A stretch of 41,766 bases of DNA, from IMG/VR virus record IMGVR_UViG_2531839131_000018, one strand, 5' to 3'. This DNA comes from a virus. Lineage: Duplodnaviria; Heunggongvirae; Uroviricota; Caudoviricetes. How positions within the stretch are numbered: the first letter of the stretch is position 1; each line of letters begins with the position of its first letter. A program made the translations under genes and the position numbers. This document shows, piece after piece, positions 34,955 through 39,797 of the stretch. The notes beneath the pieces are model-generated. The model worked only from the letters and a program-made list of their open reading frames with translations. It made no database searches and was not told the DNA's origin.

Positions 34955-35698
34955 ATGACAGAGACAGAATCAGCGATTCTGGCGCACGCCCGGCGATGTG
35001 CGCCAGCGGAGTCGTGCGGCTTCGTGGTGAGAACGCCGGAGGGGGAAAGATATTTTCCCTGCGTGAATATCTCCGGTGAGCCGGAGGAGTATTTCCGGAT
35101 GTCGCCGGAGGACTGGCTGCAGGCAGAAATGCAGGGTGAGATTGTGGCGCTGGTCCACAGCCACCCCGGTGGTCTGCCCTGGCTGAGTGAGGCTGACCGG
35201 CGGCTGCAGGTGCAGAGTGATTTGCCGTGGTGGCTGGTCTGCCGGGGGGCGATTCATAAGTTCCGCTGTGTGCCGCATCTCACCGGGCGGCGCTTTGAGC
35301 ACGGGTCGACGGACTGTTACACGCTGTTCCGGGATGCTTATCATCTGGCGGGGATTGAGATGCCGGATTTTCATCGCGGGGATGACTGGTGGCGTAACGG
35401 TCAGAATCTCTATCTGGATAATCTGGAGGCCACAGGGCTGTATCAGGTGCCGTTGTCAGCGGCGCAGCCGGGCGATGTGCTGCTGTGCTGTTTTGGTTCA
35501 TCGGTGCCGAATCATGCCGCCATTTACTGCGGCGACGGCGAGCTGCTGCACCATATTCCTGAACAACTGAGCAAACGAGAGAGGTACACCGACAAATGGC
35601 AGCGACGCACACACTCCCTCTGGCGTCACCGGGCATGGCACGCATCTGCCTTTACGGGGATTTACAACGATTTGGCCGCCGCATCGACCTTCGTGTGA
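34955..35698 (+). CDS. K: Tail assembly protein K-like (247 aa)
   Basis: JAB/MPN-like HSHPGG motif and C-terminal segment recalled from lambda gpK; overlaps the start of I as in lambda. Confidence 0.85.
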   Translation: MTETESAILAHARRCAPAESCGFVVRTPEGERYFPCVNISGEPEEYFRMSPEDWLQAEMQGEIVALVHSHPGGLPWLSEADRRLQVQSDLPWWLVCRGAIHKFRCVPHLTGRRFEHGSTDCYTLFRDAYHLAGIEMPDFHRGDDWWRNGQNLYLDNLEATGLYQVPLSAAQPGDVLLCCFGSSVPNHAAIYCGDGELLHHIPEQLSKRERYTDKWQRRTHSLWRHRAWHASAFTGIYNDLAAASTFV

Positions 35699-36244
35699 AA
35701 ACGGGGGCCGAAGCCATCCGGGCGCTGGCCACACAGCTCCCGGCGTTTCGTCAGAAACTGAGCGACGGCTGGTATCAGGTACGCATTGCCGGGCGTGATG
35801 CAGGTGAAACCGAATTATCTGCCCGTCTTAATGAGCCGCTGGCAAATGGTGCCGTGATCCATATCGTGCCGCGTCTGGCGGGAGCTAAAAGTGGCGGTGT
35901 GTTTCAGGTGGTGCTGGGGGCGGCGTTGATTGCGGTGGCATGGTGGAACCCTGTGGGCTGGCTGGGTGCCGCGGCTGTATCGGGCATGTATGCGGCAGGG
36001 GCCAGTATGATCCTGGGCGGTGTGGCGCAGATGCTGGCACCGAAAGCCAGGACGTCCACGGCAGCAGACAACGGATAACGGCAAACAGAACACCTATTTC
36101 TCCTCACTGGATAACATGGTTGCCCAGGGCAATGTTCTGCCCGTTCTGTACGGTGAAATGCGCGTGGGGTCGCGGGTGGTCTCTCAGGAGATCAGCACGG
36201 CAGACGAAGGGGATGGTGGTCAGGTTGTGGTGATTGGTCGCTGA
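35596..36244 (+). pseudogene. I: Tail assembly protein I-like, interrupted by a frameshift near 36055 (frame-1 ORF 35596-36078; homology continues in frame 2 to 36244)
   Basis: N-terminal MAATHTLPLASPGMARICLYGDLQRFGRRIDLRVKTGAEAIRALATQLPAFRQKLSDGWYQVRIAGRD and the out-of-frame C-terminal TTDNGKQNTYFSSLDNMVAQGNVLPVLYGEMRVGSRVVSQEISTADEGDGGQVVVIGR both match lambda gpI as recalled; a one-nucleotide shift separates them. Confidence 0.7.
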
Positions 36245-36304
36245 TGCAAAATGTTTTATGTGAAACCGCCTCCGGGCGGTTTTGTCGTTTATGGAGCGTG
36301 AGGA

Positions 36305-39300
36305 ATGGGTAAAGGCAGCAGTAAGGGGCATACCCCGCGCGAAGCGAAGGACAACCTGAAGTCCACGCAGTTGCTGAGTGTGATCGATGCCATCAGCGAA
36401 GGGCCGGTTGAAGGTCCGGTGGATGGATTAAAAAGCGTGCTGCTGAACAGTACGCCGGTGCTGGACACTGAGGGGAATACCAACATCTCCGGTGTCACGG
36501 TGGTGTTCCGGGCCGGTGAGCAGGAGCAGACACCGCCGGAGGGATTTGAATCCTCCGGCTCCGAGACGGTGCTGGGTACGGAAGTGAAATATGACACGCC
36601 GATCACCCGGACCATCACGTCTGCAAACATCGACCGTCTGCGCTTTACCTTCGGTGTGCAGGCACTGGTGGAAACCACCTCAAAGGGGGACCGGAATCCG
36701 TCGGAAGTCCGCCTGCTGGTTCAGATCCAGCGTAATGGTGGCTGGGTGACGGAAAAAGACATCACCATTAAGGGCAAAACCACCTCGCAGTATCTGGCCT
36801 CGGTGGTGGTGGGTAACCTGCCGCCGCGCCCGTTCAATATACGGATGCGCAGGATGACGCCGGACAGCACCACAGACCAGCTGCAGAACAAAACGCTCTG
36901 GTCGTCATACACCGAAATCATCGATGTGAAACAGTGCTACCCGAACACGGCACTGGTCGGCGTGCAGGTGGATTCGGAGCAGTTCGGCAGCCAGCAGGTG
37001 AGCCGTAATTATCATCTGCGCGGGCGCATTCTGCAGGTGCCGTCGAACTATAACCCGCAGACGCGGCAATACAGCGGTATCTGGGACGGAACGTTTAAAC
37101 CGGCATACAGCAACAACATGGCCTGGTGTCTGTGGGATATGCTGACCCATCCGCGCTACGGCATGGGGAAACGTCTTGGTGCGGCGGATGTGGACAAATG
37201 GGCGCTGTATGTCATCGGCCAGCATTGCGATCAGTCGGTGCCGGACGGTTTTGGCGGCACGGAGCCGCGCATCACCTGTAATGCGTACCTGACCACACAG
37301 CGCAAGGCGTGGGATGTGCTCAGTGATTTCTGCTCTGCGATGCGCTGTATGCCGGTATGGAACGGGCAGACGCTGACGTTCGTGCAGGACCGACCGTCGG
37401 ATAAGGTGTGGACCTATAACCGCAGTAATGTGGTGATGCCGGATGATGGTGCGCCGTTCCGCTACAGCTTCAGCGCCCTGAAGGACCGCCATAATGCCGT
37501 TGAGGTGAACTGGATTGACCCGAATAACGGCTGGGAGACGGCGACAGAGCTTGTGGAGGACACGCAGGCCATTGCCCGTTACGGTCGTAACGTCACGAAG
37601 ATGGATGCTTTTGGCTGTACCAGCCGGGGGCAGGCACACCGCGCCGGGCTGTGGCTGATTAAAACAGAACTGCTGGAAACGCAGACCGTGGACTTCAGCG
37701 TGGGTGCCGAAGGGCTTCGCCATGTGCCGGGCGATGTCATTGAAATCTGCGATGATGACTATGCCGGTATCAGCACCGGCGGGCGCGTGCTGGCGGTAAA
37801 CAGCCAGACCCGGACGCTGACGCTCGACCGTGAAATCACGCTGCCATCCTCCGGTACCACGCTGATAAGCCTGGTTGACGGAAGTGGCAATCCGGTCAGC
37901 GTGGAGGTTCAGTCCGTCACCGACGGCGTGAAGGTGAAAGTGAGCCGTGTTCCTGACGGCGTTGCGATACAGCGTGTGGGGGCTGAAGCTGCCGACGCTG
38001 CGCCAGCGCCTGTTCCGCTGCGTGAGTATCCGTGAGAACGACGACGGAGTATGCCATCACCGCCGTGCAGCATGTACCGGAAAAAGAGCCATCGTGGATA
38101 ACGGGGCGCACTTTGACGGCGACCAGAGCGGCACGGTGAATGGTGTCACGCCGCCAGCGGTGCAGCACCTGACTGCCGAAGTCACCGCAGACAGCGGGGA
38201 ATATCAGGTACTGGCCCGCTGGGACACGCCGAAGGTGGTGAAGGGGGTGAGCTTTATGCTTCGCCTGACCGTGGCAGCGGATGACGGCAGTGAGCGGCTG
38301 GTCAGCACAGCCCGGACGGCGGAAACCACATACCGCTTCACACAACTGGCGCTGGGGAACTACAGTCTGACAGTCCGGGCAGTAAATGCGTGGGGGCAGC
38401 AGGGCGATCCGGCATCGGTATCGTTCCGGATTGCCGCACCGGCAGCGCCGTCGCAGATTGAGCTGACACCGGGGTATTTTCAGATAACCGCCACGCCGCA
38501 TCTTGCGGTTTATGATCCGACGGTACAGTTTGAGTTCTGGTTCTCGGAAAAGCGGATTGCGGATATCAGGCAGGTTGAAACCACAGCGCGCTATCTTGGT
38601 ACGGCGCTGTACTGGATAGCCGCCAGTATCAATATCAAACCGGGCCATGATTATTATTTTTACGTTCGCAGTGTGAACACCGTTGGCAAATCGGCATTCG
38701 TGGAGGCTGTCGGTCAGCCGAGTGATGATGCATCAGGCTATCTGGATTTTTTCAAAGGCGAGATAGGGAAAACCCATCTGGCTCAGGAGCTGTGGACGCA
38801 GATTGATAACGGTCAGCTTGCGCCTGACCTGACTGAAATCAGGACGTCCATAACGGATGTCAGCAATGAAATAACACAGACCGTCAATAAGAAACTGGAA
38901 GACCAGAGTGCAGCGATCCAGCAGATACAGAAGGTTCAGGTTGATACAAATAATAACCTGAACAGCATGTGGGCAGTGAAGCTGCAGCAGATGCAGGACG
39001 GACGCCTTTATATTGCGGGTATCGGTGCCGGTATTGAGAACACCCCTGACGGCATGCAGAGTCAGGTGCTGCTGGCAGCAGACAGGATTGCGATGATTAA
39101 TCCTGCGAATGGCAACACAAAGCCGATGTTTGTTGGTCAGGGCGATCAGATATTCATGAATGAAGTGTTCCTGAAACGCCTGACGGCCCCCACCATTACC
39201 AGCGGCGGTAATCCTCCGGCATTTTCCCTGACATCAGACGGGAGACTGACGGCGAAAAATGCGGATATCAGTGGCAGTGTGAATGCGAACTCAGGAACGC

Positions 39301-39797
39301 TCAACAATGTCACGATTAACCAGAACTGTACGATTAAGGGCATGCTGGAGGCGACCCAGGTCAGAGGAGATTTCGTTAAAGCTGTATCAAAAGCCTTCCC
39401 GAAAAAAGTCGGTACGTGGGGTAACACGGAAACACCAAACGGTACGGTTACAGTCACCATCAGCGATGATCATAACTTTGACCGCCAGATTATTATTCCG
39501 CCCATTATTTTTAACGGTATAGCGTATGACGATCCGGGGAGCGGAAATAACCCAGGAGGCACGCGATACACGGGTTATGGTTTTGAAGTTCGCAAAAACG
39601 GCGTATTAATCGCATCCAGAGAAACTAAAGGGGCCATTCCCGGTAGTTACAGTGCAGTTATTGATATGCCGAGTGGCAGGGGAAGCGTCACTCTGGAGTT
39701 TAAGATTTTCCAGAAAGGCAATCAGGGGGCAGGCAATATCACCGACTGTACGGTGATTGTGACCAAAAAAGCCGCTTCCGGCATCAGTATTCGTTGA
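36305..39797 (+). pseudogene. J: Central tail fibre / host specificity protein J-like, disrupted by three small indels between about 37965 and 38095
   Basis: ORF 36305-38035 matches the lambda J N-terminal half; homology then moves to another frame ([27 protein letters not shown]), briefly to a third frame ([13 protein letters not shown]) and back ([11 protein letters not shown]...) to 39797. The last about 200 aa differ from lambda J. Confidence 0.75.

Follow-up and report, generated by a model that had tools for sequence, protein, structure and literature searches.

The window, i.e. the whole stretch of 41,766 nucleotides analysed here (IMG/VR record IMGVR_UViG_2531839131_000018, Caudoviricetes), contains a lambdoid tail gene cluster, and the tail genes, lom and the lesions described below lie on the + strand. 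Tail gene K (34955-35698) is an intact ORF for a JAB/NlpC-P60 peptidase of 247 aa (Pfam PF14464 and PF00877), and lom (39868-40467), for an Ail/Lom outer-membrane protein of 199 aa, is intact as well. Between these two context genes, I and J are each broken. From the homologous GTG start, I as written encodes an N-terminal fragment of 127 aa (35695-36078; PF06805 Lambda_tail_I, E = 8e-25), whereas gpI is expected to have about 182-215 aa and to overlap the end of K; the mechanical ORF list gives 160 aa (35596-36078). The C-terminal 56 codons of I follow in a shifted frame (36074-36244) within the ORF 36020-36244, where a 42-aa gene was called at 36116-36244. An intact J would be one uninterrupted ORF of about 1130-1233 aa. 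As the sequence-only reading had described, the gene is split into ORFs of 576 aa (36305-38035; Pfam FNIII-A_GpJ and Phage-tail_3) and 616 aa (37947-39797; Ig_J, Ig_J_second, Phage_Tail_Tip and Ig_GpJ_C). Homology in the N-terminal fragment, deposited as ENC48327.1, stops at 37965 and its final 23 codons are out of frame; the C-terminal ORF is homologous to J from 37966 onwards, and its deposited form, ENC48328.1, has 567 aa. Over both fragments, downstream of K and I, the gpJ/TipJ domain series is in the right order, and the region has 98.1% DNA identity to annotated J and I genes.

The terminase, portal, capsid, Z, U, V, G, T, H, M, L and K genes are all intact. In the section from 22 to 40 kb, coding indels that shift the frame and are backed by most relatives occur only in J, at 37965/6 and 38047/8; the indel at 38087 and those in I are supported by pairwise alignments rather than by the comparison with most relatives.

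Alignment to intact J and I genes of related prophages, which had been proposed as a check, placed indels at 36064-36073, 37965/6, 38047/8 and 38087. In the closest intact relatives (NZ_CP031134), I has 182 aa and J 1165 aa. Compared with these (bases missing from the window in brackets), J reads GC[T]G[A]ATAC at 37965/6, where two isolated bases are lost (-2), GG[C]A[C]GT at 38047/8 (-2) and GAG[G]CC at 38087 (-1), so that the gap-bearing strings of the window are GCGATAC, GGAGTATG and AAGAGCC. The losses thus amount to five single-base deletions in 123 nt (-5 in total), and the reading frame passes from 2 to 0 to 1 to 0. The sizes of 2, 2 and 1 nt given before are correct. The claim that the last loss restores the frame holds only between the last two sites (38047-38087), which together remove three bases and turn a 14-aa segment into the 13-aa scrambled string already recognized; the first -2 is uncompensated and is the cause of the split. 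Putting back the five bases gives one ORF of 1165 aa. At all retained bases over 266 nt, 13 intact alleles are identical to the window, i.e. there are five deletions and no substitutions.

The frame break in I is real as well. Its site is 36064-36073 and not the neighbourhood of 36055, which is merely a T/C substitution. In comparison to the NZ_CP031134 relatives, the window has GGCAG[C]CAG[T]ACA plus an inserted ACG, which is a net gain of one base. An alignment of 46 distinct I alleles showed that two allele classes are joined here one base off register: the left side belongs to class A (ending in CACGGCAG) and the right side to class B (beginning with CAGACAACGGATAAC). Past this 10-nt patch the sequence is compatible with allele A again. 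When the patch was replaced by allele A, the resulting 182-aa protein was identical to ENC84456.1 of the sibling isolate P0299917.9, and this protein is found on two contigs only in the whole collection; two in-frame A/B chimeric versions had no exact match in the protein collection. Since the sibling I protein matches both flanks, the patch is interpreted as a local contamination of the consensus and not as a permanent allele switch. For the repaired 1165-aa J, no exact match was found in any assembly of the protein collection, siblings included, and therefore no intact sibling J confirms this repair.

A 201-nt query over the J sites, run against 5,426 complete E. coli genomes, gave 10,188 matches. 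The best match was 201/206 with zero mismatches and five gaps, and none of the 10,188 J copies had the gaps of the window. As even the best complete-genome match still differs by five gaps, the lesions are particular to the window and not a chance trait of the gene family. The string at site 1 had no matches in the metagenome and species-representative genome collections, and scans of IMG/VR with allele-specific strings returned many alleles, the closest at ~97-98%.

By exact-protein look-up, the 576-aa J fragment was traced to a single contig, APYL01000023.1, to which the window belongs. It is part of E. coli P0299917.2 (GCA_000357185.2), a short-read draft assembly from 2013. K was likewise found on APYL01000023.1 only and L on two contigs; V, the Gifsy-2-like gene, H, Lom and the 42-aa I remnant were found in hundreds of unrelated genomes. 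The contig ends 721 nt past the end of the window, within a side tail fibre gene, which puts the I and J lesions 4-6 kb from the contig end. P0299917.2 to P0299917.10 are nine closely linked isolates from a single patient, and the project assembled HiSeq2000 reads with Celera Assembler to draft contigs (PMC4462620). The I/J region occurs at a median of three places per genome across E. coli genomes. Neither the window nor the other affected loci contain any ambiguity codes, so that a stripping of ambiguous bases can be neither demonstrated nor excluded.

The positions of the lost bases were compared with the variation among 86 intact J alleles. Four of the five fall on polymorphic columns, compared to 17.5% of the columns locally. 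The two columns of site 1 are T43/C33/A10 and A67/G19, those of sites 2 and 3 are C78/T8, C85/T1 and G54/A32; the exception is the C at 38048, whose column is nearly invariant (C85/T1). With single-gap scoring, six of nine small deletions hit polymorphic columns against a background of 735/4296 (p = 1.3e-3). With the default gap costs of BLAST, each pair of single-base losses is rendered as one 2-nt gap and a mismatch, and the test on the window alone is then weaker (3/5 polymorphic, p = 0.09); the enrichment is visible only with zero-mismatch placement or single-gap scoring.

The same signature was found in three other heavily gapped assemblies, L017, L018 and L258, which may come from the same pipeline as the window. 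Each has lost 58-60 bases in I-J, 64-74% of them at polymorphic columns compared to a background of 17% (p = 4e-14, 7e-19 and 7e-21 for L017, L018 and L258, respectively). Complete genomes, noisy long-read assemblies and ordinary alleles, used as controls, had no comparable enrichment (lowest p ~0.014) and deletions in them roughly balance insertions; the signature is absent from finished genomes. The GC-G-ATAC dropouts of the window are identical in L017 and L018, and the J fragment of L018 is identical to that of E. coli P0302293.6 and 2731150. Judging from strain name and accession series, P0302293.6 probably stems from the same project as the window.

The frameshifts in I and J are very probably errors in the consensus of a draft assembly which merged several prophage copies, and not mutations of the bacterium. 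This reading is based on the loss of bases at allele-polymorphic sites, the out-of-register splice in I, the recurrence in three heavily gapped assemblies combined with the absence elsewhere, and the intact I of the sibling. In the actual prophage, I (182 aa) and J (1165 aa) are most likely both intact. The earlier alternative of decay or a low-quality region is accordingly narrowed: low quality is strongly supported by the losses at polymorphic sites and their recurrence, whereas decay is not.

An E. coli genome usually has two or three lambdoid prophages, with 90-98% identity between their I and J genes. P0299917.2 was assembled by Celera Assembler from Illumina reads of ~100 nt. Reads of paralogous prophages may have been stacked into one layout, and the consensus step would have output no base where the copies differ. 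The software step behind the dropouts could have been the representation of a mismatch as two half-gapped columns or the discarding of an ambiguous call. Within I, at the hypervariable patch, a gapped alignment would have led the consensus from one allele into another, with the gain of one base. The allele-B sequence in I and the general copy number suggest that the P0299917.2 genome has a second I/J paralog.

If the lesions were instead real, the window would represent a decaying prophage with no functional tail tip and no infectious particles. This is unlikely. Cryptic lambdoid prophages often have broken tail genes, the 42-aa I remnant has been called in 610 blocks, some of which are complete genomes, and in one phage record J is split by a CG deletion. 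Decay would, however, have to produce five single-base deletions in 123 nt without a single substitution over 266 nt, and mutation has no reason to hit allele-polymorphic sites. Nor does decay account for a signature which three further assemblies show ~60 times per gene, or for the absence of these gaps from all complete-genome J copies. The same rare I allele is intact in the sibling P0299917.9, and the other structural genes of the window are all undamaged. The combination expected for a genuine pseudogene, a lesion common to clonal relatives together with other decay, was not found.

The same prophage has an amber codon in the methyltransferase gene (15943-16992), where TTG is changed to TAG at 16570-16572, which could be regarded as a further sign of real decay. 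The sequence-only reading had used it in support of decay or low quality. Being a single substitution, it is a different kind of change and thus uninformative on I and J, and this argument is dropped. The ORF at 13112-14161, considered as the methyltransferase, actually encodes a DUF968/YdfU protein. Several observations count against an assembly artefact: the amber codon is unexplained, broken I genes do occur in nature, the repaired J has no exact match, and one of the five lost bases, the C at 38048, lies on a nearly invariant column.

A still less probable variant is that the lesions are real and arose in one isolate of the clonal within-patient ETEC population during the infection. In that case, clustered small deletions would have knocked out the tail tip of a prophage resident in this isolate, which would mean an unusual localized mutation, e.g. 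error-prone repair or aberrant gene conversion between J copies; gene conversion between the J copies of co-resident prophages would delete mismatched bases.

A larger misjoin, in which the parts from the head to I and from I to stf derive from two prophages with the I lesion as junction, is very improbable. Up to ~34.5 kb the window is near-identical to prophages whose J has 1233 aa (0-3 mismatches per 500 nt), from 38.6 kb on it is near-identical to those with a J of 1165 aa, the stretch between ~34.5 and 38.6 kb is without any close relative, and two allele classes meet at the I lesion. Against this, compatibility with allele A resumes after the patch and the dropouts in J would be left unexplained. 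The patchwork between 34.9 and 38.7 kb is also ordinary: greedy exact-match tiling gave 20 segments, which equals the median of 82 leave-one-out controls, so that this method did not discriminate a SNP-level chimera.

Programmed ribosomal frameshifting, for which only the precedent of lambda G-T speaks and which had already been considered unlikely, is practically negligible, as there is no slippery heptamer of the type X XXY YYZ within about 40-70 nt of any site, every intact relative compared has one continuous frame, and three shifts in 123 nt would be needed.

In view of the preferred reading, a consensus error of the draft assembly, the prophage is best treated as having intact I and J genes pending resequencing, and little biological weight should be placed on the lesions. 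Drafts of similar age (the window, L017, L018, L258 and probably L316) lose bases at sites which differ between paralogs. This base loss leads to false pseudogenes and has placed fragments of J, ENC48327.1 and ENC48328.1 among them, in public protein databases. A bias is expected in pseudogene counts, prophage-completeness calls and tail-fibre host-range predictions which use such records.

Several known systems can be compared with the locus. Gene order K-I-J-lom and Pfam domains correspond to those of lambda gpJ (tail tip and host specificity) and gpI (tail assembly), but as deposited neither I nor J of the window is a single ORF. Lambda tails use a programmed -1 frameshift at G/GT, which has in common with the window a frame change within the tail gene cluster; the window has no slippery site and more than one shift, and relatives do not share the frame change. 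The cryptic lambdoid prophages Rac, Qin and DLP12 of E. coli K-12 contain genuine tail-gene pseudogenes. The prophage of the window is a Rac-like lambdoid one (recE and ydaU homologues) and its I and J are fragmented in a similar way. Real decay, however, involves substitutions, larger deletions, IS elements and several damaged genes, whereas the tail module of the window is otherwise intact and its lesions are free of substitutions. There is also a correspondence with consensus or indel errors in short-read drafts where near-identical repeats have been collapsed: the lesions are near a contig end, in multi-copy tail genes and at sites differing between paralogs, and they are seen again in three heavily gapped assemblies but not in finished genomes. 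They differ from such errors in that the polymorphic base is cleanly lost instead of being replaced by a wrong base or an N.

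As written, both tail-tip genes are interrupted in the window. The I ORF (35596-36078) is overlapped by its C-terminal part in another frame (ORF 36020-36244), and J is divided into an N-terminal ORF of 576 aa (36305-38035) and a C-terminal ORF of 616 aa (37947-39797), confirming the split described in the sequence-only reading. Thousands of E. coli prophages match the I-J region; the top relative (98.1% identity, 4401 nt in the window versus 4405 nt) has I and J each annotated as one gene, and in NZ_CP031134 they encode 182 and 1165 aa, respectively. Base-level alignment places the I lesion at 36064-36073 instead of near 36055, as proposed earlier: GGCAG[C]CAG[T]ACA (missing bases in brackets) plus an inserted ACG gives a net shift of +1. 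In J, bases are missing at 37965/6 (GC[T]G[A]ATAC), 38047/8 (GG[C]A[C]GT) and 38087 (GAG[G]CC), and the frame runs from 2 to 0, 1 and 0 along the gene. J falls into two ORFs because of the first -2 (37965/6), which is uncompensated; the frame restoration claimed for the last site holds only insofar as the second and third sites cancel each other, with 13 aa scrambled between them.

The 576-aa fragment was matched exactly in the protein collection on one contig only, APYL01000023.1 (131,566 bp; GCA_000357185.2, E. coli P0299917.2), where the J fragments are deposited as ENC48327.1 (576 aa) followed by ENC48328.1. For P0299917.2, an ETEC isolate obtained in Dhaka, HiSeq2000 reads (300-bp inserts, >200x) were assembled into draft contigs with Celera Assembler; the same patient yielded nine closely related isolates, P0299917.2-.10 (PMC4462620). 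The contig extends just 721 nt past the window end and breaks off within a stf-like gene (side tail fibre), as would be expected of an assembler running into a repeat. Long Ala/Asp-rich minus-strand ORFs at 40532-41766 and beyond are antisense read-throughs of this gene.

Judging from the pattern of bases, the frameshifts in I and J are very probably an artefact of draft assembly. Reads of at least two co-resident lambdoid I/J paralogs would have been merged into one, and a consensus step, as we infer for the software, would have left out the base wherever the copies differ. A second I/J paralog is presumably present in the P0299917.2 genome; matching places per E. coli genome number three in the median and 15 at maximum.

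When the five bases are restored, J forms a single ORF of 1165 aa with 12 residue differences from the closest J and no exact match in the protein collection. Over 266 nt around the J sites, other genomes supply 13 intact alleles that match the window at all retained bases; hence, the window J is here a known allele less five bases, with zero substitutions. Across 86 intact alleles, the lost columns read T43/C33/A10, A67/G19, C78/T8, C85/T1 (nearly invariant) and G54/A32. Four of the five are thus common polymorphisms, for the most part synonymous and at third positions, compared with polymorphism in only 17.5% of the columns locally. With separate single gaps scored, six of nine small window deletions fall on polymorphic columns versus 735/4296 in the background (p = 1.3e-3), an enrichment which is blurred under default BLAST gap costs.

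The I lesion resembles a splice of two alleles. Among 46 distinct I alleles, a hypervariable patch occurs in two main classes, A (..CACGGCAGCCAGTACAGATAAC..) and B (..CCGTACACAGACAACGGATAAC..). The window patch, CACGGCAG + CAGACAACGGATAAC, joins the left side of class A to the right side of class B and exceeds both by one base; in-register homologous exchange would leave the frame unchanged. With allele A in place of the patch, I encodes a 182-aa protein identical to ENC84456.1 of P0299917.9, which occurs on two contigs only in the whole collection; thus, a clonal sibling keeps the same rare I allele intact. The 42-aa C-terminal I remnant (36116-36244; comparison loci L250-L259) is a called gene of its own in 610 blocks of the collection, complete genomes included, so a broken I is common in public data, where real decay and noisy assemblies are mixed.

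Between the tail-defective prophage and the sequencing errors originally considered, losses at polymorphic columns, their recurrence elsewhere and the sibling's I favor errors. Real mutations in a decaying prophage are unlikely, since they must account for deletions avoiding non-polymorphic sites, for zero substitutions and for the intact I of the sibling. The amber codon cited earlier as accompanying evidence is present (TAG at 16570-16572 in the 349-aa methyltransferase, 15943-16992; TTG, Leu, in 97-99% identical relatives), but is, as deposited, a single T->A substitution, unlike the base-dropout lesions. In a comparison of 22-40 kb with 8 to 200 relatives, the only coding frameshift indels backed by most relatives were J sites 37965/6 and 38047/8, while 38087 and the I lesions rest on pairwise alignments. 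The small indels at ~21.1-21.3 kb (coverage 5) either preserve the frame in sum or precede the small terminase gene. Full-length genes are present for terminase, portal, protease-capsid, Z, U, V, G, T, H, M, L and K. The ClpP-protease/capsid fusion gene carries a 12-nt in-frame insertion (26341-26359) versus 8/10 relatives (690 vs 686 aa); the 690-aa form also occurs in some other genomes.

A larger misjoin of two prophages is very improbable: the nearest relatives do change around 34.5-38.6 kb, but such patchwork is normal for these genes. Z-U-V-G-T-H-M (27500-34500) differs at 0-3 positions per 500 nt from prophages with a 1233-aa J, which carry lambda-type or ClpP-fusion heads, and the J-lom end (38657-40406) shares an exact 1750-nt stretch with prophages having a 1165-aa J. 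K-I-J in between (34900-38650) is a fine mosaic of typical degree without a close relative. Among ~15 billion proteins, the exact K (34955-35698) is confined to this contig and the exact L (34251-34949) to two contigs; the neighboring V and H are found in hundreds of assemblies. Either ordinary mosaicism or a substitution-type mixing in the consensus may explain the rarity of K and L.

A 201-nt J query against 5,426 complete E. coli genomes gave 201/206 with five gaps and no mismatches as the best of 10,188 matches; thus, no finished genome searched has the complete gap set. Together with a check that found no slippery heptamer near any of the lesions, this search excludes programmed frameshifting, which had already been considered unlikely.

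The J site-1 string had no exact match in metagenomes or species-representative genomes; an exact scan returned two IMG/VR contigs, L017 and L018, both full of single-base losses. The truncated J fragment of L018 is identical to a deposited protein of E. coli P0302293.6 and E. coli 2731150. P0302293.6 follows the subject.isolate naming of P0299917.2 with neighboring accession numbers, which suggests the same project. L017, L018 and a third locus, L258 (GCA_000359035.2), have each lost 58-60 bases in I-J and gained few, with 64-74% of losses at polymorphic columns versus ~17-18% in the background (p = 4e-14, 7e-19 and 7e-21). In the controls (complete genomes, noisy long-read assemblies, natural pseudogenes and ordinary divergent alleles), gaps were roughly balanced without comparable enrichment (smallest p ~0.014). 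Together with L316, a further locus with 23 gap openings, the records are IMG/VR UViGs 2534682095_000012, 2529292836_000010 and 2531839486_000007, and GCA_000359035.2 AQBB01000119.1; from such gapped draft assemblies, fragmentary J proteins reach public databases. The wider value is limited to a warning that these draft genomes contain false pseudogenes. Phage vB_EcoS-569R4 (ON470598.1, partial genome) also has J annotated as two CDS, but its split stems from the loss of two adjacent bases, CG, at an invariant site (equivalent to 2521-2522 of comparison locus L001), unlike the lesions in the window.
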